Positions 2,489 through 62,474 of a DNA stretch of 64,000 bases are shown here, piece by piece. A program made the position numbers and the translations under genes. Under the pieces are notes generated by a model. The model was given only the letters and a program-made list of their open reading frames with translations. It ran no database searches and had not been told where the DNA came from. Positions within the stretch are counted from its first letter, which is position 1; every line of letters begins with the position of its first letter. Source of the DNA: Thiomonas sp. (GTDB lineage: Bacteria > Pseudomonadota > Gammaproteobacteria > Burkholderiales > Burkholderiaceae_C); NCBI RefSeq assembly GCF_034007205.1, contig NZ_JAVERI010000003.1, positions 179,374 through 243,373 of the forward strand, in the 5' to 3' direction.

Positions 2489-2505
2489 GAGAGAACAAGG
2501 ATGAG

Positions 2506-3441: not shown

Positions 3442-3442
3442 A

Positions 3443-46190: not shown

Positions 46191-46238
46191 GAGCGAAACG
46201 GGAAAGGCGATTATCCCCCGCGCGGCGAACCGCGGCGT

Positions 46239-46709: not shown

Positions 46710-46748
46710 GCGTGAGAAACCGCGTCGGGTCGGCCTGCCTTGCGACGA

Positions 46749-47519
46749 TCAGGACGCGCGCTTCCTGGCCGCAACCCGTTTGGCCGGAGCAGGAGATGCG
46801 GATTTCTTGGCGGCGGGGCGCTTGGCCGCAGTGGGGGCGGCCTTGCGCGCGGCCGGGCGCTTCGCAGCGACCGGGGCCTCGGCGGGCTGCGCCCGCTTGC
46901 GGGCCGGGGCCGCCGGGGCCGAGCGCGCGCCAGCCGCAGTGCCGACCACGCGGGTCACGCGCTTTTTCTCGGCAGCGGTTTCGCCATACGGCGAGGTGCG
47001 GGCGCGGGTGGTTTTCGCCGCGGCCTTCTTCGCCGCCGGGTGTTTGCGGGTAGCGGTCTTGCTGGCAGCCGTCTTGCGCGCTGGCGCCTTGGCTTGCGTT
47101 TCGGCTGGGTCGGGGCGGCTGTCCGGGCCTTTGGCTTCCACCCTGACGGCAGCCTTCGGACCAGCGCGCCGGGCCGCCCCGAGCTTGAGGTGAACCGGCT
47201 TGGCGCCCCACAGTTCTTCAAGTTTGTAATACGCGCGGATCGCGGGTTGCATGATGTGCACCACCGCCGCGCCGCAGTCCACCAGCACCCACTCGCCGGT
47301 TTCTTCGCCTTCGGGGTTGCGCACCTCGAATCCGGCGGCTTTCACGCTGTCGCGCACACTGCTGGCCAGGGCGCGCGTCTGGCGGTTGGACGTGCCGCTG
47401 GCGACGACGACGCGGTCGAACAGACTGGTGAGTTCTTCGGTGTTGAACACCTCGATGTCCTGGGCCTTGACGTCTTCGAGGGCGTCGACGATGGTGCGTT
47501 GCAGTTTGCGGATATCCAT
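46749..47519 (-). CDS. rsfS: Ribosomal silencing factor RsfS fused to a ~140-aa Ala/Lys/Arg/Pro-rich basic tail
   Basis: The first ~110 aa are typical RsfS (EWVLVDCGAAVVHIMQP..YYKLEELWG). The rest is AAKKAAAKT / AAKRPAARKAA-type repeats. Confidence 0.88.
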   Translation of the reverse strand: MDIRKLQRTIVDALEDVKAQDIEVFNTEELTSLFDRVVVASGTSNRQTRALASSVRDSVKAAGFEVRNPEGEETGEWVLVDCGAAVVHIMQPAIRAYYKLEELWGAKPVHLKLGAARRAGPKAAVRVEAKGPDSRPDPAETQAKAPARKTAASKTATRKHPAAKKAAAKTTRARTSPYGETAAEKKRVTRVVGTAAGARSAPAAPARKRAQPAEAPVAAKRPAARKAAPTAAKRPAAKKSASPAPAKRVAARKRAS

Positions 47520-47525
47520 GCGGTT

Positions 47526-48149
47526 TCAGCGTGTGTAGAGATGGTGTTGTTCGATGTAGTGTGCCACAGCAGCCGGGGCCAGGTCGTGGAGCGACTCGCC
47601 GCGGGCGAGATGGCGGCGGATGCGCGTGGCCGACAGGTCGATCTCCGGCATCGACAGGCGGTGCAGACGATGCCCGCTGGCAGCCAGCGCCGCGAGCAAT
47701 TGCGGCGGCGCGGTATGGTCATACCCCGGACGGCGTGCAGCGGCCAGATCGACCTGGGAGACGATGTTTTCCCAGCCATTCCAGGTCGGGAGGTTGCGCA
47801 ACTGATCGGCGCCCATAATGAAAGTAAACGCCGTGTCGGGATGCGCCGCGCGCAGGGCTTGCACGGTATCGATGGTATAGCTCGGTCCCTGGCGCTTGAG
47901 CTCGATGTCGCAGGCGCGCAGGCCGGGGCGCCCGGCGATGGCCAGGTTCACCATGTCCCAGCGCTGCTGCGGGCTGGCTGCCAGCGGGTCGCGCTGCCAG
48001 GGCTGCCCGGCGGGGATGAACCAGACCTCGTCGAGTGCCAGCTCGCTGCAGGCGCTCTCGGCGAGTTGCAGGTGCGCGTTGTGGACGGGATCGAAACTGC
48101 CGCCCAGCAGACCGATGCGCCGGGAGGTCGCCTGGACGGTATCGTTCAT
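47526..48149 (-). CDS. nadD: Nicotinate-nucleotide adenylyltransferase
   Basis: [18 protein letters not shown] at 48149 overlaps the hemF stop. Confidence 0.92.
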
Positions 48150-49075
48150 GCAGCCGCCCAGTCCCGCGGTTTGAGAAAGACGTCGTAAAGCTGCGCTTCG
48201 CGCGATCCCGCTTCGGGATGCCAGTCGTAGCGCCATTTCGCGATGGGCGGCATGGACATGAGGATGGATTCGGTGCGCCCGCCCGACTGCAGGCCGAAGT
48301 GCGTGCCCCGATCCCAAACCAGGTTGAACTCGACATAGCGCCCGCGGCGCAAGGCCTGGAAGTCGCGCTCGCGCTCTCCATAGGGCAGGGCGCGGCGGCG
48401 TTCGACGATGGGCAGGTACGCGGGCAGGAAGGCGTCCCCCACCGCGCGCATCAGCGCGAAGCCCTGATCGAAGCCGCCCTCGCTGTAATCGTCGAAAAAC
48501 ACCCCGCCGATGCCGCGCGGCTCGTTGCGATGCTTGAGAAAGAAATACTCGTCACACCAGGTCTTGAAGCGCGGATAGAGGTCGCCGCCCAGCGGCGCGA
48601 GCGCGGCTTGGCAGGTGCGGTGAAAGTGCCGGGCATCTTCCTCGAAGCCGTAATAAGGCGTGAGGTCCATGCCGCCGCCGAACCACGCCACCGGCGCCCG
48701 GCCCTCGGGGCTGGCCATGAGCATGCGCACATTCATGTGCACCGTCGGTACATACGGATTGGTCGGATGGAACACCAGCGAAATGCCCAGCGCCTCGAAC
48801 GGCGCCCCTGTCAGATCGGGCCGGTGCTCGGTGGCCGAAGGCGGCAGCCTGGGGCCGCGCACATGCGAGAAGTTGCAGCCGCCGCGCTCCAGCAGCGCGC
48901 CAGACTCGATCAGACTGCTGATGCCCTCGCCCTGCAGCGGCGAATCGGCAGGTCGCGTCCACGCATCGCGGCGGAACGGCTGACCGTCTGCCGCCTGCAG
49001 CGCTTCGAGAATGCGTGTCTGGAGATCGAGGAGGTAGGAGCGGACCCGTTCGATTTGCATAGATGCGGTTTGCAT
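48146..49075 (-). CDS. hemF: Oxygen-dependent coproporphyrinogen III oxidase
   Basis: [37 protein letters not shown]. Confidence 0.93.
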
Positions 49076-49290
49076 GACGGTGACCCCCGCGCCATGCGCC
49101 GGGCTCATTTCTGGAGGTCACAATTCTTTCACGATTGTCGAGGTGCGCTGCGCAGGAAGGCCCATGCCTGTCAGTCTCCAAGCCGATATGGCATGGGTCG
49201 CGTCCCGCGACGTGGTGTAGGTCCACAGCCCGGACAGGCTGAGCTACACGGTACTTTGCGTGCCACAGCGGACAGCCGAGTCGGGGCAGT

Positions 49291-49560
49291 ATCGCAGAGC
49301 GACTGCAGGCCTTCAAGCTGCATATACCGGCGATGCAGCGACCCCTCATCGTTCTGCTCCATGCCGATGGCGGCGCCCACCTTCATGCCCAGCACCTCGC
49401 GCTGGCCCTCGGTGTTGACACCGACGGCGATGATGACGGCCACGCAGACGATGCGGCCGGCCTCGCGGGTCTTGACGTAGGTGGCGTCGATCTGGCGCAG
49501 CACGCCGATGTCGGCCCCCTTCTCGTCGAGCTCGTTCAGTGCGATAGTGGCGTGGGTCAT
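49291..49560 (-). pseudogene. IS256 (mutator) family transposase fragment, internally deleted
   Basis: DATYVKTREAGRIVCVAVIIAVGVNTEGQREVLGM is joined directly to the C-terminal-type MEQNDE...RRYMQLEGL. Confidence 0.7.
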
Positions 49561-49669
49561 CGTGGTTTCCTTCAGACAAAGTTGGTGGGTTCGCACCTCA
49601 ACCTTAATCAGCTTGGCCAGCGCCCGTCGCATCGAGACCAGGGTGGCGTTGCCGTCGCAGCGGCCGCCG

Positions 49670-50195
49670 AGGAACTGGAGAACGCGCCAGGATCCGCTGG
49701 CCGACGTGTGGAGCAGCGAGGTCATCCCGCTGCTCGAAGCCAAGCCTGGGCTGGCGGCGGTGATGGTGCTGGAGTGCCTCCAGCGCCGCCGCCCAGACGA
49801 GTTCGATGAAGCGGCGCTTCGGACCCTGCAGCGGCGCATGCGGCAGTGGCACGCCGGGCACGGCGAGGAGCGCGAACTGTTCTTCGCCCAGGCGCATCCG
49901 CCGGGATGTCTCGGGCTGTAGGACTTCACGGTGGCCGACGAACCCGGTGTGGTGATCGCCGGCGCTGCGTTCGCACATCGGCTCTACCCGTTCGCCTTCG
50001 CGCACAGCGGCTGTCGCCACGTCAGCGTCGTGATCGGCGGCGAGAGCTTCCAGGCGGCGCTGTGGATGGCCGGCGGCGTTCCCAAGGAGCACCGCACCGA
50101 CAGCCTCTCGGCGACGTTCAACAACCTGGCCGAGCAAGAAGAGTTGACCCGCAACTACGACGGCCTGTGCGCGCACTTCATCCTGTGCACAGACG
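49670..50195 (+). pseudogene. rve/DDE-type transposase fragment with frameshift (IS family not determined)
   Basis: WRTRQDPLADVW..LRTLQRRMRQWHAGHGEERELFFAQAHPPG is in one frame. GGVPKEHRTDSLSATFNNL..LTRNYDGLCAH is in another frame. Confidence 0.6.
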
Positions 50196-50442
50196 GATTC
50201 CGGGCCACGATCCGTAGCGAGGAGTTGCAGGAGCTGCTCACCGAGCCTGACCCGTCGGCCGCCTGCGCGCGGTCGGAAGCCCTCGCGGCGAAACGCGGGG
50301 GGGGGCGGCGACAATGTCACCCTCGCCCTGCTCCAGCCGCGCTGGCCTGTCGCCCCATCGCAAGTGCTGGCCGCTCCATGCCGCGCTCGCCGTCGCGCTG
50401 CCTGCCCTCATGATCATGATTTTCGATAGCCCAAGACACCGC

Positions 50443-50652
50443 ATGAAAGGTCTGCTGCGCACCCTCTTTCCGCTCTCTTCCCTGATGCTTGCCGCCTGCG
50501 TGAACAGGCCGGCAGTGAACGACAGGTCCCAGTGGGGTACCGACACCCCGGAGCCGAAGCACACCCGGACCGAATCATCCGAACTGCGCGAGATCGTCGA
50601 CTGCCTGGGCGCCGGCATCCTCGTGGCCGTCATCATCGTGCTCTCGAAATGA
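50443..50652 (+). CDS. Small putative lipoprotein with C-terminal TM segment
   Basis: MKGLLRTLFPLSSLMLAAC lipobox. 28 nt upstream of the ZIP gene. Confidence 0.5.
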   Translation: MKGLLRTLFPLSSLMLAACVNRPAVNDRSQWGTDTPEPKHTRTESSELREIVDCLGAGILVAVIIVLSK

Positions 50653-50680
50653 GGGCGGGAATTCAAGCCAGGCCTGGCAG

Positions 50681-51424
50681 ATGAGCGCGACCCACCAGGC
50701 CGTTCTCCTGCTGTCGCTGATGTCCTTCCTCACGACCGCCCTTGGCGTCGCCCTTGCCCTGTGGGTGCGCGAGAACCCGCGGGCCATTGGCGCCGGCATC
50801 GGCTTCTCCGTGGGCATCATGATCCTGATCTCGGTGCTGGAGCTGATCCCCGAGTCGACGGCGCTGATGGGGGCCGGCAAGACCCTTGCCAGCGCCGGCC
50901 TGGGCGCGGGGCTTGTGTGGGCGGCGCACCTCATCATCCCGCACATCCACCTGGTGGAGGAGAAGGGCATGGTGGACATGGCGCTCATCCGCTCCGTCTA
51001 CCTCGTGGTGTTCGGCCTCGTGCTGCACGACGTCCCGGAAGGCTTCGCGATGGCCAATGCCTACGTGGCCTCCCCCGCGCTCGGCCTGCTCGTGGCCCTG
51101 GCGATCGCGCTGCACAACCTGCCGGAGGAATTCGCCATGTCGGTGCCGGCGGTGCTGACCCGGAGCAAGAGGTTTCTCTTCGGGGCCGCCCTGCTGTCCG
51201 CCCTGGCCGAGCCCGTGGGGGCCATCCTCGGGCTGGTGGCGGTCGGCCTTGCGCCCGCCCTCAACGCGCATTTCCTTGCCTTCGCCGCCGGGGCGATGAT
51301 CTTCGTCTCGATCCACGAACTCATTCCGATGGCGCACCGCTACCGCCATCCCGCCATGTTTGCCCTGGGCCTGGCCGCAAGCGTGCTGGTCTATGTCCTG
51401 CTCGCCCGTTTGACCCTCGCTTAG
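50681..51424 (+). CDS. ZIP-family divalent metal transporter (ZupT-like)
   Basis: LHDVPEGFAMA and LHNLPEEFAMS motifs, about 8 TM segments. Confidence 0.85.
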   Translation: MSATHQAVLLLSLMSFLTTALGVALALWVRENPRAIGAGIGFSVGIMILISVLELIPESTALMGAGKTLASAGLGAGLVWAAHLIIPHIHLVEEKGMVDMALIRSVYLVVFGLVLHDVPEGFAMANAYVASPALGLLVALAIALHNLPEEFAMSVPAVLTRSKRFLFGAALLSALAEPVGAILGLVAVGLAPALNAHFLAFAAGAMIFVSIHELIPMAHRYRHPAMFALGLAASVLVYVLLARLTLA

Positions 51425-51461
51425 CCTTTGGAAGCCCGCCCTGCGTTGTTGTGCCGGATCC

Positions 51462-52253
51462 TCAGCTCAAGGCATGGAGCGGGGCGAAATCCTCCACCCG
51501 CGCAAGTCCCCGGGCGTAGTCCGCGTGCCAGCCCTCGCGCACCGGCAGGGTCGCGTAGAGTTCCTTCCTGCGCGCCTCGAACAGCCATCGCGGGCGCCCC
51601 ATGAAGTCGGCGGCACAATGGACCCTGCGGCCCGCCTCGCGCGCGATTCCCTCCATCCAGTCCTCCCCTTCCAGGGAGCGCAACAGGTGGTGATCCAGGA
51701 TCAGCGTGCGCACGCCCCGCGCCAGCCGCAGGGCGTTGGCGCGGGCGCGGGCGCGCAGCCCCTCATCGAGGCCGTCCTGGTAGAGGGCGGGACCGGCGGC
51801 CAGGACCCAGTGCGCGCCCCAGCCGAGGATGAAGTCGATGGTGACCTCGTCGATCAGCTGGATGTCGGAGGCATGCAAGAAGATGCGTCCACCGAGGTCG
51901 ATGCGGGTGAGCATGACGCTGCCGAAGGGCAGCCCGCCGATGCCGTGGGGCATGCCGCGGGAAAAGCGCATGGGGCCGTCGGCCAGCCCCTCGGCCACCT
52001 GGAAGCGGGGCCCCAGGAGATCCGCAAGGGCGCGTGCGCGGGCCTGGCTGGTGGGGGTCTGGCTTGCGGGCGACAGGCTCCATGCGCGCAGGGCGCCGAA
52101 CCCGGGCGGCAGCTGCGAGAACGCGAGCTGGTAGGGGTTGGCATCGAGCAGCGGGACATGATCGCCGTGGAAGTGGCTGAACACCACGTCGGTGGCGCCC
52201 GCAAGGGCCTGGATGATGCGCCGCCGGACCGCCCTGCCCGCCGCGATTTGCAC
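51462..52253 (-). CDS. MBL-fold metallo-hydrolase, 5' end probably displaced by the IS insertion
   Basis: SHFHGDH motif only ~26 codons after the GTG at 52253. The frame continues across the IS (see findings). Confidence 0.6.
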   Translation of the reverse strand: MQIAAGRAVRRRIIQALAGATDVVFSHFHGDHVPLLDANPYQLAFSQLPPGFGALRAWSLSPASQTPTSQARARALADLLGPRFQVAEGLADGPMRFSRGMPHGIGGLPFGSVMLTRIDLGGRIFLHASDIQLIDEVTIDFILGWGAHWVLAAGPALYQDGLDEGLRARARANALRLARGVRTLILDHHLLRSLEGEDWMEGIAREAGRRVHCAADFMGRPRWLFEARRKELYATLPVREGWHADYARGLARVEDFAPLHALS

Positions 52254-52258
52254 CGGGT

Positions 52259-53882
52259 GAGGACGCGTAAGTTTTTGATTTTTCTAGCAGCCTGTCGGTC
52301 TTTCCCCCGCCGAGAGCCGATAAAATTCCCCCACCCGAATCCTGCTGACGCCCCATGGCCCGCTTCCTACCGATTGACCGCGACAGCGAATATCTCTTCC
52401 CGCCCTCGGTGCAAGACTGGCTGCCCGAGACCCACCTGGCGCGCTACATCGCCAACGTCATCGAAAGCCTCGACCTCACGGCGATCGAGAAGCGCTATGC
52501 CGGGCGCGGCAGCGACGCCTACCACCCCGCCAGCCTCATGAGCCTGCTGATCTACGGCTATGCCACCGGCGTGTTCTCCAGCCGCCGCATCGAGCAGGCC
52601 ACCTACGACTCCGTGGCCTTTCGCTATCTGGCCTGTAACCGCCATCCCGACCACGACACCCTGGCCACCTTCCGGCGCCGCTTTGGCGAACAGTTCCAAG
52701 CCCTGTTCGTGCAGGTGCTGCAGATCGCCCAGGCCAACCGCCTGAGCCAATTTGGCACCGTCAGCCTGGACGGCACCAAGATTCACGCCAACGCCTCGCG
52801 CCACAGTGCTCTGTCGTATAGCCATGCGAACCAGCTCGAAACCCAGCTCAAGCAGGAAGTCCAGGAACTCCTGGCCCTGGCCGAATCGGCCGACCAGAGC
52901 GAGTTGCCCGAAGGCTTGAGCGTGCCCGCCGAGATCGCCCGCAGGGAAGATCAACTCAAGGCCATTGCCGAGGCGAAAGCCAGGATCGAGGCGCGGGCGA
53001 AGGCCCGCTTTGAACGCGAGCAGGCCGAATTCGAGGCCAAGCTCAAGGCACGGGAGGAGAAGGCGGCGAAGTCCGGCAGGAAACCCGGCGGCAAGCCGCC
53101 CACGCCGCCCAGCGCGGCCCCGTGCGAGCAAGACCAGGTCAACCTCACCGACGACGCATCGAGGATCATGAAAGTCGCCGGTGGCGGCTTCGAGCAGTGC
53201 TACAACGCCCAGGCGGTGGTGGACACCGAAACGATGCTGGTGCTGGCCCCCGAGGTCACCCAGGCGGCCAACGACAAACAACAGGTCGAGCCGATGCTGG
53301 AGAAGGTCCAGGCACTGACCGAAGGGCTGAACAGCCCCGCCACCTTGCTGGCCGACGCGGGCTACCACAGCGAGAACAACGTCCAGGCCTGCATCGAAGC
53401 CGGGATCGAGCCGCTGATTGCCGCAGGCAGGGAAGGCCACCACCCGCACTGGAGGGAACGCTTCAGCGAGCCCGAACCCCTTCCCGAGGACGCCACGCCG
53501 GTGGCGCAAATGGCGCACACCCTGAAGACGCAGGCCGGCAAGCAGGCCTATGCGCTGCGCAAGCAGACGGTGGAGCCAGTATTCGGCATCATCAAGTCGG
53601 TGATGCGGTTCCGGCAGTTCCTGCTGCGCGGACTGGACAATGTCCGCAACGAATGGACGCTGGTCTGCCTGGCGTGGAATTTGAAACGCATGGCCGTATT
53701 GCGCCCGAATTCCGTCCAAAGGGCCTGAAAGACCGCTGAAAAGACCTCAAACCCGTGAAATTCATGCATCGAGAGGCCGAAATTGCTCAATAAATGTGCA
53801 AACCCGGTTTCAGTCGGGGAGATGCTCACGCGAATCAGTTCAAGTCCGACAGGCTCCTAGGAACCGAAGGTACTTCGCGTAA
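52259..53882 (+). mobile_element. IS1182-family insertion sequence (apparently intact)
   Basis: Imperfect ~38-bp inverted repeats at 52261-52298 and 53846-53882, with core ccgacaggctSctag. A single 457-aa transposase. CGGGT is found on both flanks. Ends are uncertain by about 20 bp. Confidence 0.75.
52355..53728 (+). CDS. IS1182-family (IS4/IS5 superfamily) transposase
   Basis: N-terminus FLPIDRDSEYLFPPSVQDWLPETHLARYI, a central coiled coil, DDE-region motifs ADAGYHS and the C-terminal VEPVFGIIK. Confidence 0.85.
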   Translation: MARFLPIDRDSEYLFPPSVQDWLPETHLARYIANVIESLDLTAIEKRYAGRGSDAYHPASLMSLLIYGYATGVFSSRRIEQATYDSVAFRYLACNRHPDHDTLATFRRRFGEQFQALFVQVLQIAQANRLSQFGTVSLDGTKIHANASRHSALSYSHANQLETQLKQEVQELLALAESADQSELPEGLSVPAEIARREDQLKAIAEAKARIEARAKARFEREQAEFEAKLKAREEKAAKSGRKPGGKPPTPPSAAPCEQDQVNLTDDASRIMKVAGGGFEQCYNAQAVVDTETMLVLAPEVTQAANDKQQVEPMLEKVQALTEGLNSPATLLADAGYHSENNVQACIEAGIEPLIAAGREGHHPHWRERFSEPEPLPEDATPVAQMAHTLKTQAGKQAYALRKQTVEPVFGIIKSVMRFRQFLLRGLDNVRNEWTLVCLAWNLKRMAVLRPNSVQRA

Positions 53883-54494
53883 CGGGTTTCGGCGGCGATG
53901 CGCGGGCGCGCGCGGGCCACACGAGGCCAGTGAATACACGCCCATCGGTCTCTCGATCAATTGATGCTCATATCTCTGTGCAGAGATGAGTTCCGCGCCC
54001 TAACCTGTGCCTGGTTTCGCTGGGACAGCACCGCCGCCACCAGGGCGGGCAGCGGCAGCTTGCGTCGCCGTGTGAAGGCGTTGGGCGCGCCTTAGTGACG
54101 CGCCGTCCCGGCGAAGTCCGCCGAGTGGATGTCATTGTGCAGATCCCGTAGGATGCACTGGGCGCTTGCACAGTATTGAGATCAACTAGGGAAAGACCTC
54201 GATACACGAACAAAAGCGACAAACTATATTATGGATTTTGCCACGCCAACAGGCTTAAGTTCGGTGGATTTGGGTGCGACGTAGTGCGTGGTGGGGTGCG
54301 GGTGGCGGCGTCAACCCGCCGCCTCGGAGCTCCGCCTGCGAAGTCCCCTGCGGCTGATAGGTCCACGCACGGACCGACGCGGACGGTCGTGCACTTGCCG
54401 ATTTCAGTACGGCCGCCCGTTCCCGCACCCAGCCGGATGGACTGTGGAGTGACGCAACGAGACGATCTCGTCGCGCGGCCGCTCAAAAGAGGGG

Positions 54495-54660
54495 GTGCGC
54501 TTGCTGCGGAACGACGCCGAAGTCGCGATGATGCTCGGGTACGAGCCGAGTGCCACGCGCCAGCGGCGGCACCAGCACTCCGAGACGCTGCTGCCGTCGA
54601 TGCGGATCGGGAAGGTCCGCCGCTACGATTCCGCCGAGGCGGCCGCGTCCAAGAATGCTC
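54495..54660 (+). pseudogene. Possible AlpA/excisionase-type HTH gene remnant
   Basis: LLRNDAEVAMMLGYEPSATRQRR..LLPSMRIGKVRRYDSAEAAA resembles the HTH_17 pattern. The ORF then runs antisense into the intI stub. Confidence 0.25.
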
Positions 54661-54675
54661 GAGGCAGCCCAGCGT

Positions 54676-54759
54676 TTGTTTATAGTGTACGCAAGCGATG
54701 CGCTCGCGCAGCTGATCGAGCAGGCGAACCGAGCGCAGCGCAGGCATGCCGGGTTCCAT
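54676..54759 (-). pseudogene. intI: Integron integrase (intI) N-terminal stub
   Basis: [22 protein letters not shown] compared with the recalled IntI1 [22 protein letters not shown] (~15/22). Similarity is lost after HY. Confidence 0.6.
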
Positions 54760-54900
54760 GGTTCCTTTATACCTGTGTTTTTGGACAGTCTATCCGTCTG
54801 GAAGCCAGTCTGCGAGCCGCTTCGCCGAGCAAGCCCTGGCCAGAATATCCCGCACGGGCCAGCTTATCCGGCAGCATCTGCGGGATACATTGCGTTAGGC
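54760..54900. other. attI-like region ending in the core GTTAGGC
   Basis: It lies between the divergent intI stub and the first cassette ORF. GTTAGGC at 54894-54900 is 20 nt before the ATG. Confidence 0.45.
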
Positions 54901-54919
54901 ATATATTAATGGGGGCAGC

Positions 54920-55249
54920 ATGACTAGAAGTGAAAGAGCAATGCAAGTTTGGCAAATCTTGGTAGGCGCCGCGCATAACCGCCAAACCTTAACTTATGGT
55001 CACCTTGCAACACACCTTGAATTTGAAGGGGCGGGTGTATTCGCTCACATTCTTGGTTGCATTATGAAGTATTGCAAAGACAACAAATTACCACCTCTCA
55101 CCTGTCTAGTCGTCAATCAAACTAGCGGCTTACCCGGTGATGGTTTGACCACGGTAGAAAACCTACCGACTGATAGAGAAGCCGTTTACAAACAGAACTG
55201 GTATGCACTTTATCCTGTTCAAATTTCTGATTTCGAGCCTTATGCCTAA
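54920..55249 (+). CDS. Cassette 1 ORF: hypothetical, possibly an MGMT/ATL-like winged-helix protein
   Basis: QTLTYGHLATHL...AHILGCIMKYC...PPLTCLVVNQTSGLPGDG loosely resembles the MGMT DNA-binding fold but lacks PCHR. Confidence 0.6.
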   Translation: MTRSERAMQVWQILVGAAHNRQTLTYGHLATHLEFEGAGVFAHILGCIMKYCKDNKLPPLTCLVVNQTSGLPGDGLTTVENLPTDREAVYKQNWYALYPVQISDFEPYA

Positions 55250-55315
55250 CTTTCGCTTCGAGAGGGACGCTCCGCCAAAAAGCCGGCTCCGCGCCCCTCA
55301 AGCTAAACGTTAAGC
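55244..55315 (+). other. attC site 1
   Basis: R'' GCCTAAC (containing the stop TAA) ... R' GTTAAGC. Imperfect arms cttcgagaggg / cccctcaag. Confidence 0.7.
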
Positions 55316-55330
55316 CAATAGACACGCAGC

Positions 55331-55939
55331 ATGAGCAAGAGCATCGGCATTTACCTTTTCCCTGAAGTGGAGGCGTTGGACTTCGCTGGCCCATTTGAGG
55401 TGTTCACTACCAGCAGCAGAGTCCATAAGCGGCTTCATCCGGAAAAGGCAGAGCCGTTTCAAGTCTTCTCTGTTGCGGAGAACCTGGCACCGGTTCGCGC
55501 ACGAGCAGGTTTACGCATCGCGCCCGACTATAAAATCAACAGCCACCCAGACATTGATGTTCTGATCATTCCTGGGGGCGTCGTCACAGACGAACTTCTC
55601 AAGCCAGAAGTCTTGCGATGGGTCTCGCGGTGCGGCAACTCATCTAAGTGGGTCGCCTCCGTGTGCACCGGTGCGTTCATCCTGGCCAAAGCTGGCGTCG
55701 TCAGCAGAGGGCGTGTCACCACACACTGGGAAGATCAAGCCGAACTCGCGGAGTTGTTCCCCGCCCTAGAAGTGATCAACGGCCCTCGCTGGGTTGAACA
55801 GGGCAGAGTCATCACATCAGCTGGCATCTCGGCCGGCATCGATATGTGCCTTTATCTTGTGGGTTGCTTGTGCACGCCGATACTTGCAGAAGCAACTGCG
55901 CGCCAGCTGGATTATCAATGGAACACAGGTCATGGCTAA
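55331..55939 (+). CDS. Cassette 2 ORF: DJ-1/PfpI family protein
   Basis: GIYLFPEVEALDFAGPFEVF, VLIIPGG, ASVCTGAFILAKAG nucleophile elbow, ITSAGISAGIDM. Confidence 0.85.
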   Translation: MSKSIGIYLFPEVEALDFAGPFEVFTTSSRVHKRLHPEKAEPFQVFSVAENLAPVRARAGLRIAPDYKINSHPDIDVLIIPGGVVTDELLKPEVLRWVSRCGNSSKWVASVCTGAFILAKAGVVSRGRVTTHWEDQAELAELFPALEVINGPRWVEQGRVITSAGISAGIDMCLYLVGCLCTPILAEATARQLDYQWNTGHG

Positions 55940-55968
55940 TCGTGTGGTCTGCTCAACACACTACAATG

Positions 55969-56040
55969 GTTTAACAAGTCATTCCAGCAGACCATCAAAA
56001 AGCTGCGCTTTTTGCCATCCGCTGAATTCCAACTTTAGGC
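55969..56040 (+). other. attC site 2 (degenerate R')
   Basis: GTTTAAC-5nt-attccagc ... gctgaatt-5nt-tTTAGGC with symmetric spacing. The first base of R' is T instead of G. Confidence 0.5.
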
Positions 56041-56056
56041 ACCACGGGAGAAGCAA

Positions 56057-56272
56057 ATGCCATCACTAACTCAAGCAGAAATCGAAGGAGTATTCTCGGC
56101 CCTAGGGCTTGCCAATGACGCTTCTCGCGAAAAGTTCCGTCGCCTCGCGGCTACGGCGGAACAACAAGAGACGCCATTGTGCTTCATTCGCGTAGACGAC
56201 TCATCGTCGTGGTCGGACCAAGGAGAGAAATATGCCCAGCTGGCACCAGCTACTCGAAGAGATCAAGACTAA
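56057..56272 (+). CDS. Cassette 3 first ORF: 71-aa hypothetical protein
   Basis: Its ATG is 17 nt after the core, like the other cassette ORFs. GGGAG lies upstream. It overlaps the next gene by 41 nt. Confidence 0.45.
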   Translation: MPSLTQAEIEGVFSALGLANDASREKFRRLAATAEQQETPLCFIRVDDSSSWSDQGEKYAQLAPATRRDQD

Positions 56273-57221
56273 GGGCAGCACGTTCGATGTCATTCGGCGG
56301 AAGTATCTCCAACGTCTCGAACGAGTTACTGGCCGCAATGTCATCCTGTACTACTCCGGCTGGCTGCAGAAGCCAGGAATGGTAGGTGTACAGGTTAATG
56401 ACGCTGACAAGAATGGCTTCATGACTGTAATTCATGGCCTAGACCGCAAACGAGGCCTCGATCTACTTCTTCATACACCAGGGGGAGAAACCGCGGCTAC
56501 AGAGTCGCTCGTGGACTATTTGTACTCGATGTTTGGCACGAACATTCGCGCCATAGTCCCCCAGTTGGCGATGTCGGCCGGCACGATGATCGCGTGTTCG
56601 GCGCGCGAGATCATCATGGGTAAGCAATCTAGCCTTGGGCCAATCGATCCGCAGTTCAGCAACCTCCCTGCGCACGGCGTTGTGGAGGAGTTCAAGCGGG
56701 CCGCCCAGGAGATTTCGGAAGACCCATCGAGGGTCGCGCTTTGGCAGCCTATCATCGCCCGCTATCATCCCACACTCATTGGTGAGTGTGAGAAAGCCAT
56801 TCAATGGTCAGCGGACATGGTCCGTGAATGGCTTGTGCGAGGCATGCTCAAGGATCACGTCGATCCAGTGGCAAAGGCATCAGAGATAGTGACTGAACTC
56901 TCTGATCACGCGCTAACCAAGTCGCACGCGAGACATCTTTCCGCGGACAAGTGTAAGGCGATCGGTCTGAACATTTCAATGCTCGAAGACAACCCTCGCC
57001 TTCAGGACGCCGTGCTCACAGTGCATCATGCCTGCATCCACACACTAGGCTCCACCCAAGCCTTCAAGTTGATTGAAAACCACAAGGGAGTCGCGTTCAT
57101 TCAGATAGCCCAGCAAATGATTGTCCAAGGCCCAGCGAATATTGAGCTCGTTCCTCGCTTGGAGCCACCGCCGCTCGCTGCCCCCCAAGAGGTGCCGCAG
57201 CCGGGCGAGAATGGCGCCTAA
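56232..57221 (+). CDS. Cassette 3 second ORF: SDH-family (S49/ClpP-fold) serine proteinase
   Basis: VILYYSGW, LDLLLHTPGGETAA, IVPQLAMSAGTMIACSAREIIMGKQSSLGPIDPQ. AGGAG lies 8 nt upstream of the ATG. Confidence 0.75.
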   Translation: MPSWHQLLEEIKTKGSTFDVIRRKYLQRLERVTGRNVILYYSGWLQKPGMVGVQVNDADKNGFMTVIHGLDRKRGLDLLLHTPGGETAATESLVDYLYSMFGTNIRAIVPQLAMSAGTMIACSAREIIMGKQSSLGPIDPQFSNLPAHGVVEEFKRAAQEISEDPSRVALWQPIIARYHPTLIGECEKAIQWSADMVREWLVRGMLKDHVDPVAKASEIVTELSDHALTKSHARHLSADKCKAIGLNISMLEDNPRLQDAVLTVHHACIHTLGSTQAFKLIENHKGVAFIQIAQQMIVQGPANIELVPRLEPPPLAAPQEVPQPGENGA

Positions 57222-57297
57222 CCACAACTTCGAGCGGACCGTTCACAAGCGGCGCTGCGCGCCCCTTGTGCCCGGCCCCTCAAGTTGATCGTTATAC
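57216..57297 (+). other. attC site 3
   Basis: R'' GCCTAAC (containing the stop TAA) ... cccctcaagttgatc R' GTTATAC. The arms are similar to those of attC1. Confidence 0.65.
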
Positions 57298-57306
57298 GTA
57301 CAGACA

Positions 57307-57759
57307 ATGACAGCGCCGGAAATCAAGGGATGGAGAGCGGTTGCAGGCTCCATGATCCAAGCGTCCTACGAGGTCGCGTTTGTGCTGCTGCCTGTGTTGG
57401 TCTGGATCCTCGTACTGCTTTCTCTCGGCAAGTCTCAAGATGTTAAGACCTTGGCTGCATGGCCCTTCGCGAGCCTTTCACTTTTCAGCGCAATGCTCCG
57501 TGATGGCATTTCTGCGTTCCATCAAGACACAACAAAAGACAAAGAGCAAAGAGATCTCATCGTTGTATTCGCGCTCATCGGGGTTATTCTGAGCACGGTT
57601 CTGCTTACGCTGGCCGTTATGAAATCAACCGGACAAGTCACCTATCTTTGGTCGTTCTTCTATGAAACGGTGTGGACGTTTGTAGCTATTAGCGCCCTGC
57701 TTCTATTCGTCACAAAAGCTATTCTGATTCAACGCAAAAGTTATGGTCGGTACGTATAA
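57307..57759 (+). CDS. Cassette 4 ORF: 4-TM membrane protein of unknown function
   Basis: Four long hydrophobic segments. The ATG is 10 nt after the core. Confidence 0.65.
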   Translation: MTAPEIKGWRAVAGSMIQASYEVAFVLLPVLVWILVLLSLGKSQDVKTLAAWPFASLSLFSAMLRDGISAFHQDTTKDKEQRDLIVVFALIGVILSTVLLTLAVMKSTGQVTYLWSFFYETVWTFVAISALLLFVTKAILIQRKSYGRYV

Positions 57760-57829
57760 CAAGGCGCTCCAGCCGACGGCCTTGCCTCCGCTTCGCTACG
57801 GCAAGCCCGCGGCTGAGCTGGGGCGCTAG
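57754..57829 (+). other. attC site 4, lacking its R' core
   Basis: GTATAAC-5nt-gctccagc ... gctggggc-gctag. At that point GGAAGCGCTGAAG (IS5-type end) stands where GTTRRRY is expected. Confidence 0.45.
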
Positions 57830-58473
57830 GGAAGCGCTGAAGAAATGACCTCTTGGCCGAAGCCGTTGATGTCCATGGTCGCAAACTGCGCAAAGATCGA
57901 GCAGTTTTGGGTCGGCAGGCGCAAAAAGGGACCGAAAACCGACGGTGCACGCCGCCCTTTGTCTCATTTCTCACACTGCGGACGCACCTCGGGTGTCGAG
58001 GCGCAAAACCTGCCTGCGCGCCAGCAGCAGATTGGCCAGGGCAAACAGGGTGTGCAGTTGCGCGGTGTTCTTCGCCAGTCCGCGGTAGCGGGTCTTGCGG
58101 TGCCCAAAGAGGTTCTTCACCACATGGAAGGGATGCTCGACCTTGGCGCGGATGCTGGCCTTGATGCGCTCGGCCTGCTCGAGCAGCCGCGCCCAAGCCT
58201 GTTGGCCGGGCAAGGCGCCGCGCGAGCCGGTAGCGCGCCCTCGACGATGCCAAACACGCCGGGCGCCCTCGGTTCTTGCGCGCCGCATGCGGCTCGATCA
58301 GCGGCAGCAAAGCACCCCCCGCGGGTCCACGCACTGCATCTCCTCGAGAAACGGCACCTTGCGCGTCTTGCGCTGCGTCAGATGCAGACCCAGTTCAGAT
58401 TGTTTGATCCTCACACCTTGGCCCGGCTGCATCCGCGCTGCGCCGGGACGTTGTGGGATTTTTTGAACACCAT
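57830..58473 (-). mobile_element. IS5-family element remnant (transposase internally deleted and frameshifted)
   Basis: N-terminus KQSELGLHLTQRKTRKVPFLEEMQ..LIEPH and C-terminus IKASIRAKVEHPFHVVKNLFGHRKTRYRGLAKNTAQLHTLFALANL, with no central DDE region. Boundaries are approximate. Confidence 0.7.
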
Positions 58474-59390
58474 ACTTGGGTGGCGGGCAGTTGCCAATCG
58501 AGTGCGTCGAGGCTGTCGCCGTCTTGCCACGACCCATCCCACGCATGCGGCTCGGCGCTCTCCAGCAGGAGCAGCGTGAGGACACGATCGCGCGCGCCGT
58601 AGCTGTGCTTGAACTCGCGCAGCTTCATGTGCGGTGCTTCTTCCGTACACCAGACCGCGGCGGACATCTCGGTGCCATCCCATTCCTGATCGACGCCGGC
58701 GTCGCCGGCCAACGTGCCCGGCAGCGGTTCCTGCGGATCGCCGTTGCGCCGGATGCGAGCCCGCGTCTTGACGGCGCTGCTGCTGCGCCATTCGTACTTC
58801 ACGTAGCCGTTGTCCCAATGGACGAGGATCCCGCGCTGCGGGGTGAACTTGATGAAGCGGATGCACAGCGCCTCGAACGAAACCTGAAACCGCTTCGCGA
58901 TGGCGCCGAGGACGTGCAGGTCGATGCGCTGGTGCGAAATCCAGTCGCGCAGCAGATCGCCGGGCATCAGCAGGTTGCTGGCGAACTCGTCGGCTTCGCG
59001 TTCGATGGCGCGGATGGTGTCGATGCCGGTGTGGACGCTTTCGTTGTCGCAGTTGAACCTCTGCTGCCGGCCGCGATGCAGGATGAAGTGGCCCAACTCA
59101 TGGGCGATGGTGAAACGCCGGCGCTCGGGGTTGGCATTGCCGTTGTAGAAGATGCCCCACTCGGCCGCGTCCTTCGGGTTGCGCACCAGCATCCCTTCAC
59201 AACTGTCGACGTCGAGCACCGCCGGCGCCTTGATCTCGCGCACACCTTTGCCGTAAGGCGTGCTCGGCAGCATCTGCCGGACGATGTCCAGATCGACGGC
59301 GTCGGGCATGCCCGTGCCGTACCACGCCCGCAGCCACTTCTGGACGGTGTTGGCGGCAATGGGGCCGGTGAGGGCCGGCGTTGCGCTCAA
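58395..59390 (-). CDS. ImmA/IrrE-family metallopeptidase with extra C-terminal domain; 3' end runs into the IS5 remnant
   Basis: HEXXH motif IAHELGHFILH and EREADEFASNLLMP. A TTG start at 59390 overlaps the XRE stop (alternative ATG at 59309). The last ~25 codons are IS-derived. Confidence 0.7.
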   Translation of the reverse strand: MSATPALTGPIAANTVQKWLRAWYGTGMPDAVDLDIVRQMLPSTPYGKGVREIKAPAVLDVDSCEGMLVRNPKDAAEWGIFYNGNANPERRRFTIAHELGHFILHRGRQQRFNCDNESVHTGIDTIRAIEREADEFASNLLMPGDLLRDWISHQRIDLHVLGAIAKRFQVSFEALCIRFIKFTPQRGILVHWDNGYVKYEWRSSSAVKTRARIRRNGDPQEPLPGTLAGDAGVDQEWDGTEMSAAVWCTEEAPHMKLREFKHSYGARDRVLTLLLLESAEPHAWDGSWQDGDSLDALDWQLPATQVWCSKNPTTSRRSADAAGPRCEDQTI

Positions 59391-59734
59391 GTCTCCATCC
59401 CCGCTCTGGCCTTGTCGGGGAACATGATCTTGAGCGCCTGGCGGTAGCGATCCTTTTCCTCGTCCGTCATCCCGGCGTACTCGCGGAAGAAGGCCACGTC
59501 CTCTGGGCTGGCTTCGGGTGCCTGCTGCATGGGCGTGCCCATCACGTCCTCCATCGTCACGCCGAGTACCTGAGCGATTCTCTGAATCCGCTCGGCGGAC
59601 GGGCGCTGGCCCTCCCTCATCTCCAGTTCCCAGATGTAGGCCTTGGTGCAGCCGACCGCGTCGGCGACCTGTTGCAGGGTCAGCTTCTTCGCCTCGCGCA
59701 AGCGCCGCAGGCGTGCTCCAAACGCCGAAGCCAT
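59387..59734 (-). CDS. XRE-family HTH transcriptional regulator
   Basis: FGARLRRLREAKKLTLQQVADAVGCTKAYIWELE. An alternative start exists at 59758. Confidence 0.85.
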   Translation of the reverse strand: MASAFGARLRRLREAKKLTLQQVADAVGCTKAYIWELEMREGQRPSAERIQRIAQVLGVTMEDVMGTPMQQAPEASPEDVAFFREYAGMTDEEKDRYRQALKIMFPDKARAGMET

Positions 59735-59777
59735 GGCGATGCTCCTGTTGCGGCTCAACAGCCGGTGAATGAATCCA

Positions 59778-59793
59778 GGGTATCAGTATACCC
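59778..59793. promoter_or_regulatory. Palindromic candidate operator
   Basis: gggtat-cagt-ataccc in the divergent intergenic region. Confidence 0.4.
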
Positions 59794-59828
59794 GCGAGAG
59801 ACATGGAAGGCTCGATGTCCTTTGTTGA

Positions 59829-59857
59829 TTGACAAGCGGAAATCTGCGGCTCAGAAT
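59829..59857 (+). promoter_or_regulatory. Sigma-70-type promoter reading toward 59978
   Basis: TTGACA-17 nt-CAGAAT. Confidence 0.5.
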
Positions 59858-59977
59858 CGCGCTTGCATCTCGTTACTTTACTTACGCGAGATGCGTGTTC
59901 AGCCATCCTGTCGCTGGCCCGTGCAGCCCGTCCATCGGTCGCAGACCTCCGACGCCGATCCAGAGAGGACGACCAAG

Positions 59978-61216
59978 TTGAAGAAGACCTTTGTCGACGT
60001 GATGCTCGAGCTGCCGGTGGACGCCACGCTGCGCGACTTCCTGACCTCGCACGGCCTGCCGGTGCCCGAAGGGTTCGCCTGGGACGAGACGCCGCAAACC
60101 AGCCAGTTCCTGGTGGACGCGGTCAAGGTGTGGCCCGATACCGCCGCCCGCGACCAGATGATCGCCAACCTCATGGCCGCCGTCCAACTGGGCGACGCGG
60201 CGGGCCAGCAGGCGATATTCGAAGCCGCGGCGGCCGATGGTGCCGCACTGACGGGCTTGGCGACTCTGTGCCAAAGCGACGTTCACCGCTCGTTCTGGCT
60301 GTACATCCATCACCCGACGCTGTTCGAGCGCGCCTACGACTTCAGCTTCTGGGAGCACCACGGGCCGCAGAGCCAGCAATACGATCTGGGTCTGAAGCGC
60401 CAGCCGGACGGCTCCGACCGGCAACTGGCCGCGCTGCGCAACGCGATCTCGGCGTTCTACGAGCGCGAGATGCATTGCGGCGACGGCAGCGTCGCGCATT
60501 TGGTCGAGCGCAGCCCCGGCGTGTTCCTGCTGACCGTCCATGTCAAGGACATGGCCATGCTGCGGCTGGAGTTCGAGGGCTCAACCTTGAAGCGCCGCGT
60601 CGGCAATCCCAACATCCACATGGTGCTCGAATACGCCAAGTCCACCGGCGTGGTGCGCACGCTGGTGCGCGGCGGGCAGAAATACCAGCAGATGCTGGTC
60701 GAGGCCTTCGCCGAGCATGTGCTGGGCGTCAAGGCGAACGCGCACCGGATCAAGTCGCCGACGCTGGATTTGTCGATGTTGCGCACCGGTTTCGACGCTC
60801 CGGAGGCGTTCGAGGACGGTTTCTCTCTGGTGCAGCTCAAGGCGCTCACCCTCCTGAGCCCCGACGCCGCGCTGAAAATCGAATGCACCGCGATGCAGTC
60901 GAGCCAGCAACGCTCGGTGCACGAGTTGCTGAAGGAAAAGCTGCCCGGCCCGCTGGAAGGCAACTGGGCGGTGACGGCGGCGCAGGTCAATCTCTACTAT
61001 CCGCCCGAGCCGGGCCGCACGCGCGCCCGGGTGGTGACCATCGAGGTGACCAGCAAGGGGCGTCTGAACCTGAACAAGTTCGACCCCAAGATGCAGGCGC
61101 AGTTAGAAGGCTATCTGGTCTCGGTGGGCATCTTGCAGAAGGGGCAGACCCTGAGCGCGCAGGAGATCCCGCCGGAGGGCGACGCGATCCGTTCCTCGCC
61201 GGCGTTCGAGGACTGA
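59978..61216 (+). CDS. Hypothetical protein, 412 aa (ORF A)
   Basis: A TTG start 8 nt after GAGAGGA is preferred. Composition is coding-like throughout. No motif recognised. Confidence 0.6.
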   Translation: MKKTFVDVMLELPVDATLRDFLTSHGLPVPEGFAWDETPQTSQFLVDAVKVWPDTAARDQMIANLMAAVQLGDAAGQQAIFEAAAADGAALTGLATLCQSDVHRSFWLYIHHPTLFERAYDFSFWEHHGPQSQQYDLGLKRQPDGSDRQLAALRNAISAFYEREMHCGDGSVAHLVERSPGVFLLTVHVKDMAMLRLEFEGSTLKRRVGNPNIHMVLEYAKSTGVVRTLVRGGQKYQQMLVEAFAEHVLGVKANAHRIKSPTLDLSMLRTGFDAPEAFEDGFSLVQLKALTLLSPDAALKIECTAMQSSQQRSVHELLKEKLPGPLEGNWAVTAAQVNLYYPPEPGRTRARVVTIEVTSKGRLNLNKFDPKMQAQLEGYLVSVGILQKGQTLSAQEIPPEGDAIRSSPAFED

Positions 61217-61219
61217 TCG

Positions 61220-62173
61220 ATGGCGGCGCACGATGCCTGGGCCTTGGTCTGCCGCCTGTTCGCAGGCGGCACGCCGGTGCTGCGAACCACGCTGTCGCCG
61301 CGCGAACTGGCTGCGCTGTCCGTCCTCGGCAAGGCGGTCAAGCCGACGGTCGTCGATCATTCCTTCGTCCTCTGCCCGCACTGCCAGCAGCATCGGGCGC
61401 AGGTCTGGGGCGACGGTCGCGGCGGACGCATGTGCCGTTGCCCGGAGTGCGGGCCCGTCGCCGTCGAAGCCAACGATGGTGCGGCGTTGGCCTTGGACGA
61501 GGAATGGTTGCGCACCAAGCTGCGTCTCGCGCTCGGCATCGAAAGCCGCGACGGCATCGATGACCTGGGCGACGGCGTGTGGCGGCTGGGCCAGGCTCGC
61601 CGCTCGCCCGTGCTGCTGGCCCGCGATCTGGTGCGGGTGCAGCAAGAACCCGCGCTGTTGGATCGCGTGCGCGTCGCCGGCGGCGACATCCGGGTGATCA
61701 CGCCCAGGCCGCGCACGACGCGCGGATCGCCCTTCGGCGCGGGCGTCGAGTGGCTGGCGCTGGAGGAGCGCTTCACGTTCTACGGCGGCGCGATCGCGCT
61801 CCTCGGCGCGCCGTCGCCGTCCTCGACGCCGGCAATCGCCGATCCGGCCGCGCCGGTGAACGGGCCGTTCTCGGCGGATTTCAAGTGGGCGACGCTGCCG
61901 GACGGCTACGGCACACCGATCCGGTTCACCGACGGTCAGGCCAGGGTGTTCAAGGCGCTGTGGTCGTTCAAGGGCAAGGCCGCGACGGCCGAACGCATCA
62001 TGCAGCGCGCCGGCTTGAACAGCGCCAAGCCGAGCGACCTGTTCAAGATCAAGCCGAAGGACAGGGGCAAGCAAGAACCTGCGGCACAGCACGCGGCCTA
62101 CGGTGCGCTCGTGATCACGCAGCGACGCGCAGGCTTGTACTCGATGCCCTGCGCGGCGGGCGCGTTGGCGTGA
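61220..62173 (+). CDS. Hypothetical zinc-ribbon protein, 317 aa (ORF B)
   Basis: Starts 3 nt after the ORF A stop. CPHC-X17-CPEC motif. The C-terminal segment FTDGQARVFKALW..TAERIMQRAGL looks wHTH-like. Confidence 0.6.
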   Translation: MAAHDAWALVCRLFAGGTPVLRTTLSPRELAALSVLGKAVKPTVVDHSFVLCPHCQQHRAQVWGDGRGGRMCRCPECGPVAVEANDGAALALDEEWLRTKLRLALGIESRDGIDDLGDGVWRLGQARRSPVLLARDLVRVQQEPALLDRVRVAGGDIRVITPRPRTTRGSPFGAGVEWLALEERFTFYGGAIALLGAPSPSSTPAIADPAAPVNGPFSADFKWATLPDGYGTPIRFTDGQARVFKALWSFKGKAATAERIMQRAGLNSAKPSDLFKIKPKDRGKQEPAAQHAAYGALVITQRRAGLYSMPCAAGALA

Positions 62174-62395
62174 TCGATTGCTGCTCCAAGTTCGCCGGAC
62201 AACCGATGGCGGCGGCACGCGCGTAAATCACGGCCGCGCAAGGCCGTGTGCGTGTGCCACGGCGAAGAAGTTGGCGCAGGTTTCGAGAGAACAGAGAGCA
62301 AAAATGGAGCGAACCGGGCGCGGCATGGGCCCCTGTCTGCCGACCCTCGGCACACGCAGAACGGCCCGCAACGCCACGTGCCGCGCGGAATCCGC

Positions 62396-62430
62396 AAATG
62401 AAAACGCCCAGCCGAGAACGGTTGGGCGCT
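62396..62430 (-). terminator. Rho-independent terminator immediately 3' of the tRNA-like fragment
   Basis: Minus strand reads cgcccaacc-gttctc-ggctgggcg followed by ttttcattt. Confidence 0.65.
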
Positions 62431-62436
62431 GAATAG

Positions 62437-62474
62437 TGGTGGCGGAACACGGAACCGAACCCGCGTCCGCAATC
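62437..62474 (-). other. tmRNA/tRNA 3'-end-like fragment (T-arm, acceptor strand, CCA); probable att scar
   Basis: Minus strand reads gattgcGGACGCGGGTTCGGTTCCgtgttccgccACCA. No matching 5' acceptor strand or cloverleaf lies upstream. Confidence 0.5.

Follow-up and report, generated by a model that had tools for sequence, protein, structure and literature searches.

Clusters of attC sites lacking an integron integrase (CALIN) are among the described systems closest to the locus considered here; loss of intI is among their proposed origins, and 95% of the surveyed CALINs have no recognisable intI pseudogene (Cury et al. 2016, PMC4889954). In Xanthomonas there is good documentation of chromosomal integrons whose intI has been inactivated and whose arrays are stable (Colombi et al. 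2025, PMC12444791). The present locus lies at nucleotides 54676-57829 of a 64,000-nucleotide stretch of Thiomonas sp. DNA (assembly GCF_034007205.1, contig NZ_JAVERI010000003.1, positions 179,374 to 243,373), hereafter the window. It had been predicted, from its letters alone, to be a degenerate chromosomal integron. On the evidence set out below it is very probably a decayed Burkholderiales-type chromosomal integron, consisting of an intI stub, an attI-like site and four attC-bounded cassettes (Table 1). This kind of element is already known; the locus is well supported yet ordinary, and leaves the knowledge of integrons unchanged.

Like CALINs, the locus has few cassettes (four), mostly of unknown function, and adjacent insertion sequences. 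Unlike most CALINs, its origin is legible, in the form of 26 intI codons, a LexA-box region and a complete attI. A stub of this type would be missed by the published pseudogene search (PMC4889954), as it is without the C-terminal IntI domain used there. IntegronFinder would be expected to call the locus a CALIN, a class defined by at least two attC sites no more than 4 kb apart without an integron integrase gene nearby: four matches to an attC covariance model lie within 2.6 kb on a single strand, and the 26-codon stub is the sole IntI segment of the window. A complete integron, by comparison, has a full-length intI with the IntI-specific additional domain, and here codons 1-26 only are left.

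The resemblance to the Xanthomonas integrons (PMC12444791) lies in the inactivated integrase on a chromosomal platform and the stable array of poorly characterised genes. Unlike those integrons, the locus is of the Burkholderiales type with a Hydrogenophaga-like attI and is not beside ilvD; its inactivation came through the loss of about 92% of intI, and an IS5-family element has in addition cut the array. Four intact integrons (reference loci L017, L018, L019 and L035) share approximately 75% DNA identity with it across the 5' end of intI, the promoter and LexA-box region and attI, together with the same attC architecture. These possess a full-length intI (about 330 amino acids), and none of the cassettes of the window is present in their arrays.

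With class 1 integrons the locus shares the overall layout, a stub 73% identical to IntI1 residues 8-29, and an attC1 resembling the aacA4-type attC of two reference loci (L055, L088). It is nevertheless not a class 1 integron. Members of that class have a near-identical IntI1/attI1 5' conserved segment in a Tn402 context, whereas the DNA identity in the 5' region is here 67.6% over 145 nt, no Tn402 tni genes or 3' conserved segment were seen in the open reading frame (ORF) and family listings, and the region corresponding to the class 1 promoter Pc is deleted.

The locus offers a readable case of a CALIN arising from a complete integron, with the end of an IS5-family element exactly on an attC crossover core, and adds four environmental cassettes to the catalogue. 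Among these, a conserved two-gene protease module and a widespread 109 amino acid protein, both present in other arrays, are candidates for functional screens.

The intI stub and its platform

Using IntI1 from an annotated plasmid as the tblastn query, the stub peptide (54747-54682, minus strand) showed 16 of 22 identities to IntI1 residues 8-29 (E 2e-5); the original prediction had put this at about 15 of 22. The stub also matches positions 8-30 of the 337 positions of NCBIfam NF011946, "integron integrase" (E 3.8e-5). In a tblastn search of 72,556 plasmid records the peptide matched at least 5,000; among the matches listed, the best carries the annotation intI1 and the next one "integron integrase", and most rows have no feature under the match. 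The start codon was placed at 54759 by comparison with relatives, whose proteins begin MKPGTPALRS. This leaves 26 codons, in agreement with the predicted end of the similarity after about 25. No further part of intI was found in the 64 kb of the window (54 kb to the left and 9 kb to the right) by tblastn with two IntI proteins, and Pfam revealed no integrase domain in the 176 amino acid ORF that reads through the junction. The loss amounts to about 92% of the gene.

Intact intI loci of Burkholderiales genomes were collected using an IntI profile search. At the DNA level, 54681-54900 and a Burkholderiaceae metagenome-assembled genome (L017) share 75% identity across 217 nt; the identity is 74% with a Hydrogenophaga locus (L018) and 72% with L019. 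In the multiple alignment the homology starts abruptly at 54681, the truncation point, and ends directly past the GTTAGGC heptamer at 54894-54900, which had been proposed as an attI-type core. Beyond this core the sequences are unrelated, as is expected if each genome has different cassettes after attI.

The best-conserved part of the alignment with six intact integron platforms is the attI-like block, which contains the direct repeats CCAGAATATCCCGCA (54840-54854) and CCAGCTTATCCGGCA (54859-54873) and the inverted copy TGCGGGATA (54879-54887). Judged by homology, 54840-54900 is a putative attI, located beside the intI start and ending in a core of the GTTRRRY form. A 33-nt motif spanning the attI block occurs once in the window (0 expected), and three Hydrogenophaga loci (L018, L019 and L035) have it immediately upstream of their intact intI.

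The sequence CTGT-N8-ACAG is the form of the LexA box which places intI under SOS control. The window contains a single perfect copy, CTGTGTTTTTGGACAG (0.36 expected in the whole window), and its position is conserved in the aligned intact platforms. It probably belongs to an SOS-controlled intI promoter region.

The setting appears to be chromosomal. On the identical NCBI contig, Pfam families 5-10 kb to the left of the locus, which we take to be thiE, rlmH, rsfS, nadD and hemF, fit housekeeping genes.

The attC sites

Rfam has no attC family, and an Rfam scan of 53-59.5 kb returned only noise. A strict attC test was therefore of the consensus type, requiring RYYYAAC and GTTRRRY cores 50-150 nt apart, with R and L boxes pairing with one bulge. 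Applied to 80 IntI loci it gave 47 cassette-side matches in cassette orientation and 15 on the opposite strand of the same side, with none in 567 kb downstream of intI, which served as the control. In the window attC1 alone passed this test. Since attC2, attC3 and attC4 have non-consensus or missing R' cores and fail a strict regular expression, a covariance model was chosen. This model, R1, was built from the bottom strands of 24 short non-redundant attC sites near intact intI in other genomes, and includes no sequence from the window. On its 24 seeds the R1 structure has 94% of cells paired, versus 80% in shuffles and 23-45% with slid partners, and 53 double-sided changes, figures to be read in the knowledge that the seeds were selected for pairing.

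When the whole 64 kb was searched on both strands with filters off, R1 scored exactly the four sites that had been predicted (27.0 to 41.7 bits; Table 1), the best score elsewhere being 11.8 bits (E 0.5). All four lie upstream of the intI stub and share its strand. The model gave approximately 150 matches when run on reference loci totalling 1.07 Mb, almost all upstream of intI and in the same orientation. In Paenacidovorax caeni (L016, 2006-2064) a 37-bit match was observed downstream of intI on the opposite strand, the only strong match in the reference loci to depart from the expected side and orientation.

Folding of the bottom strand had been put forward as a check. The L stems pair in all four sites, and an extrahelical T and G occupy the unpaired positions of R1 (GUC...G bulges) in 4/4; the single-sequence DNA folds had z-scores of -2.2 to -5.9, the latter for attC3. 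The core pairs are GCCTAAC (55244) and GTTAAGC (55309), GTTTAAC (55969) and TTTAGGC (56034), GCCTAAC (57216) and GTTATAC (57291), and GTATAAC (57754); all of the coordinates and motifs quoted in the original prediction are present in the sequence. Both cores of attC1 agree fully with the consensus, attC3 has GTTATAC as its R' core and attC2 has TTTAGGC. The R' core of attC4 is lost, as had been noticed, the cause being an IS5-family end at 57826-57840.

In TTTAGGC the crossover G has been changed to T. The corresponding bottom-strand AAA for AAC was seen in one of 150 reference sites, AAC being present in 146. The mutation is consistent with relaxed selection after the loss of the integrase, although one site proves little.

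Two outcomes had been named beforehand as ones that would speak against an integron, namely no attC-model match at the four sites and no significant match of the peptide to IntI. Both matches were obtained, the one with R1 and the other with NF011946 and tblastn, and the reading as a degenerate chromosomal integron is borne out by them, by the end of the attI homology and by the chromosomal location.

Table 1. Features of the decayed integron and its borders (window coordinates; bits and E-values are those of covariance model R1)
Feature	Position	Strand	Details
Flanking insertion sequence, outside the integron	52281-53863	+	DDE transposase 52355-53728; 22-nt terminal inverted repeats
Segment replacing the intI body, 817 nt	53864-54680		Right edge is the truncation junction
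intI stub, first 26 codons	54682-54759	-	NF011946, tblastn with IntI1, DNA identity to relatives
LexA-box-like palindrome CTGTGTTTTTGGACAG	54773-54788		Between intI start and attI
attI-like site	54840-54900	+	Two direct repeats, inverted copy, core GTTAGGC 54894-54900 (G/TT crossover)
Cassette 1, 415 nt	54895-55309	+	ORF 54920-55249, 109 aa; start TTAGGC, own inverse core GCCTAA, 6/6
attC1	55244-55315	intI strand	41.7 bits, E 2.4e-9
Cassette 2, 725 nt	55310-56034	+	ORF 55331-55939, DJ-1/PfpI family; start TTAAGC, own inverse core GTTTAA, 5/6
attC2	55969-56040	intI strand	32.7 bits, E 7e-7
Cassette 3, 1257 nt	56035-57291	+	ORFs 56057-56272 and 56232-57221; start TTAGGC, own inverse core GCCTAA, 6/6
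attC3	57216-57297	intI strand	34.0 bits, E 3e-7
Cassette 4, 534 nt	57292-57825	+	ORF 57307-57759, 150 aa; attC4 from 57754 to the R' G (57825); start TTATAC, own inverse core GTATAA, 6/6
attC4 (R1 match)	57757-57828	intI strand	27.0 bits, E 2.9e-5
IS5-family remnant	57826-58290	-	CTAG target 57826-57829; terminal inverted repeat GGAAGCGCTGA 57830-57840; transposase fragment 57971-58288

The cassettes

In a cassette that was once circular, the first six bases are TTRRRY, and the attC at the other end has an inverse core complementary to them. The agreement of the four cassettes with this rule is given in Table 1. In cassette 4 the non-consensus base is compensated, the start GTTATACGTAC being complementary to the cassette's own end GTACGTATAAC over 11 bp. 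The GC content of the array is 53.5% versus 64.4% for the window, which agrees with the visibly lower GC content reported at the outset, and the GC3 of the cassette ORFs (0.39-0.64, differing among cassettes) compares with 0.83-0.89 in neighbouring genes. The base composition of the cassettes is foreign. Four plus-strand ORFs starting 10-20 nt after the cores had been described: the spacing holds (9-19 nt), and the count does not, being five with two ORFs in cassette 3. In three of the four sites the TAA stop codon lies inside the inverse core, as stated. The five ORFs are all intact and of family-typical length.

For cassettes 1 and 3, homologous attC-bounded cassettes occur in other arrays. 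Methylophilus sp. 5, whose chromosomal integron is complete, encodes a homologue of the cassette 1 protein there, as the sixth gene called after intI and between two R1 matches. The two cassettes show 83% DNA identity from the G/TTAGGC core to the next G/TTA core and no relationship in their flanks; the Methylophilus cassette has an attC loop shorter by 14 nt. The gene pair of cassette 3 is also present in two metagenome contigs (L101 and L102), with a small ORF of 63-66 amino acids (35% identity) and a protease of 81% identity, bounded by R1 matches of 25.5 and 19.3 bits. In the fetched loci, neither cassette 2 nor cassette 4 had a homologous cassette.

In one of these contigs (L101, JGI 3300010350, 2341-4294) the protease cassette is directly followed by a CBASS-like two-gene unit, SMODS and S_4TM, between R1 matches of 19.3 and 43.9 bits, and the same unit is present in L100 and L102. 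The unit has the appearance of a defence system carried in cassette form.

The 109 amino acid protein of cassette 1 has 189 homologues. Its AlphaFold2 model has a pLDDT of 91, and the best Foldseek matches in the PDB are all O6-alkylguanine-DNA alkyltransferases (MGMT/OGT), at a weak level (E 0.6-2, TM 0.46-0.50). From this model an MGMT/ATL-like winged-helix fold is possible. A profile search against PDB sequences was empty. Some of the homologues are labelled "Atl1" by JGI, and the cysteine position which we take to be the alkyltransferase active site is not conserved. A 73%-identical homologue was observed outside any cassette in L010 (957-8330, ENA contig k141_711483), in a restriction-like island where its neighbours are an Eco57I-type methyltransferase and two SNF2/PLD-domain genes. 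Toxin-antitoxin and HEPN genes surround a further homologue in Sideroxydans (L007), with no attC match.

The claim that every cassette ORF is poorly characterised was overstated, as two of the products belong to clear families. The cassette 2 protein contains PF01965 (DJ-1/PfpI; E 1e-23). In cassette 3 a 71 amino acid ORF overlaps the start of a gene for an SDH-type ClpP-like serine protease (PF01972, E 9e-22; NF047768, E 8e-25). At NCBI the identical protease bears the label Thiomonas sp. An 82%-identical homologue of this protease was seen, together with HicB and tautomerase genes, between fliL and flagellar hook genes in GCA_040960765.1 (L103, 4414-7191); this small foreign insert within a flagellar cluster has no match to the attC model.

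The cassette 4 protein (150 amino acids) contains 3-4 hydrophobic segments by hydropathy, and its family is rare, with 29 clusters among 1.84 billion representatives. The small cassette ORFs gave nothing credible in Pfam at E-values up to 10, and none of the five cassette proteins matches a PADLOC model. The cassette 3 pair, which adjoins the attC-bounded SMODS and S_4TM cassette in another array, might be a self-contained mobile defence or toxin-antitoxin-like module passed between integrons, and the cassette 1 protein, which neighbours restriction-type genes in one relative, might likewise act in phage conflict; we regard these roles as doubtful.

Truncation, present state and neighbourhood

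In the original integron, intI is transcribed leftward from an SOS-controlled promoter. The integrase inserts promoterless circular cassettes at attI by cutting G/TT of GTTAGGC, the partner being the folded bottom strand of attC. Four cassettes were captured successively, each with its own base composition and each keeping the mark of a closed circle in the pairing of its first six bases with its own inverse core. Damage to both ends of the platform followed. On the left, intI was lost past codon 26 by a deletion or rearrangement, and 817 nt of unrelated DNA are now beside an insertion sequence. On the right, the attC4 crossover point was hit by an IS5-family element, and whatever came after was removed.

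The break at codon 26 does not coincide with the end of an insertion sequence. The transposase of the flanking element (52355-53728) has the Pfam domains DDE_Tnp_1, DUF772 and DDE_Tnp_1_6, and its inverted repeats (52281-52302 and 53842-53863) are 86% complementary. No obvious target duplication was seen at 52281-53863, and this element may have joined in a rearrangement instead of a simple insertion. The ORFs of the 817-nt segment gave no credible Pfam match (E up to 10), and a protein search with the ORF at 54495-54686 returned no homologue.

The end of attC4 reads G-CTAG-GGAAGCGCTGA. The 15-mer CTAGGGAAGCGCTGA (57826-57840) was compared with the termini of IS5-family elements fetched from plasmids: it has 0-2 mismatches to those in L104, L106 and L107, is found at both element ends in L104 and L107, and has three mismatches to the L105 terminus TTAGGGAAATGCTGA. 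From the 15-mer to the transposase stop codon there are 145 nt here, and about 150-160 nt in L104, L105 and L107, the relatives which keep this end. IS5-family elements prefer YTAR targets, and the terminal repeat is beside such a target at the usual distance from the stop. The C-terminal transposase fragment (57971-58288) contains DDE_Tnp_1 (Pfam, E 3.9e-10), the remnant DNA matches annotated IS5 transposases, and a search of the plasmid records with the whole locus gave IS5 matches only. The right boundary of the remnant (58290) is approximate. The match of the terminus and the distance to the stop codon indicate an IS5-family element, later truncated itself, which lies directly against the attC4 crossover point and closes the array. 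A general targeting of attC cores by such elements was considered, and no other example of it was found in the integron loci.

Two other explanations of this end were rejected. An ORF at 57845, 14 nt past a "GCTAGGG" box, was considered as a truncated fifth cassette and lies in the subterminal region of the element; point decay of attC4 to GCT was discarded since 57826-57840 is an IS5-family terminus.

Several points weigh against a decayed integron with this history. The junction reads G-CTAG, one base different from the G-TTAG that would be expected had the element entered a canonical GTTAG core. For the truncating event on the left, the 817-nt segment has no relative in plasmids, in the fetched loci or elsewhere in the window. 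The IntI search covers 64 kb of the genome, and a second intact intI elsewhere is possible. The R1 match to attC4 is local (model positions 4-64), and the R1 E-values are rough, coming from a short calibration with heuristic seeds, yet the seeds are from other genomes and the score gap is large. A consensus scan of 54500-55000 found no sigma-70-like site that might serve as the cassette promoter. The same scan of the closest intact platforms was likewise empty, and in a class 1 control it located Pc at intI1 nt 88-116, just past the cut point (residue 29) of the stub. If located as in class 1, Pc is deleted here.

Lacking an integrase, the array would be unable to rearrange itself, a gene cluster frozen in place. 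The crossover triplets of the attI-like site, attC1 and attC3 are still canonical, and both extrahelical bases are retained. An integrase supplied in trans could, to judge from these features, excise cassette 1 by itself, or cassettes 2 and 3 joined in a single piece, attI, attC1 and attC3 being candidates for recombination competence; junctions using attC2 (TTT) or attC4 (without its R' core) are probably dead.

It is also conceivable that the array was parted from an intact intI, or shares its genome with a second integron, and that its cassettes are still shuffled in trans. About half of CALINs lie in IntI-encoding replicons, and rearrangements can split integrons (Cury et al. 2016, PMC4889954); the insertion sequences on both flanks, the three canonical sites and the five intact ORFs are in keeping with such a split. 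The 54 kb to the left and the 9 kb to the right hold no IntI-like sequence, however, and as the break at codon 26 is not at the end of an insertion sequence, the 3' part of intI would be truncated too. No shuffling is seen: exact-protein look-ups retrieved independent contigs with these cassettes, and in all of them the arrangement is identical. The rare crossover mutation of attC2 points in the same direction, and a split integron is accordingly considered unlikely. An intact ancestor was not found among the contigs carrying the cassette proteins, all of which have the truncated arrangement, and this identity fits a fixed, non-shuffling locus in one population.

Insertion of the cassettes at a non-att site by an integrase acting in trans, with a coincidental IntI-like peptide, is far less probable still. 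Such ectopic events are documented for cassettes (Cury et al. 2016, PMC4889954, and bioRxiv 10.1101/2022.09.11.507474), but here the first cassette begins exactly at the attI core, and the 220 nt of stub, promoter region and attI show homology to intact integrons, with every part correctly ordered, spaced and oriented. That the locus was never an integron and consists of GC-rich palindromic repeats or terminators with GTTRRRY-like ends is barely credible: three of the four sites fold with modest z-scores (-2.2 to -2.7), only attC1 passes the strict consensus and Rfam offers no attC family, but R1, whose specificity for the cassette side of genuine integrons is nearly perfect, sets the four sites more than 15 bits apart from the rest of the 128 kb of strand searched, the cassette-level homology is bounded at the predicted cores, and the base composition is foreign.

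Nucleotides 44920-62442 of the window, which include the decayed integron, are 99.99% identical to JBMOQC010000002.1. The identity stops at 62442, while that contig runs about 2.8 kb further; the break is a strain-level rearrangement or an assembly difference. Assemblies carrying the locus include GCA_049320765.1 and a Thiomonas sp. metagenome-assembled genome.

To the right of the IS5-family remnant, the minus strand carries a capP-like M78 peptidase gene (58395-59390 in the gene calls of the NCBI contig; E 1.6e-53) and a capH-like helix-turn-helix gene (59387-59758; PADLOC E 6.7e-24). These are divergent from plus-strand genes for proteins of 412 (59978-61216) and 317 amino acids (61220-62173), for which no credible Pfam or PADLOC match was obtained. 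The region 58395-62173 might represent a defence operon, so far uncharacterised, with regulation of the CapH/CapP type.

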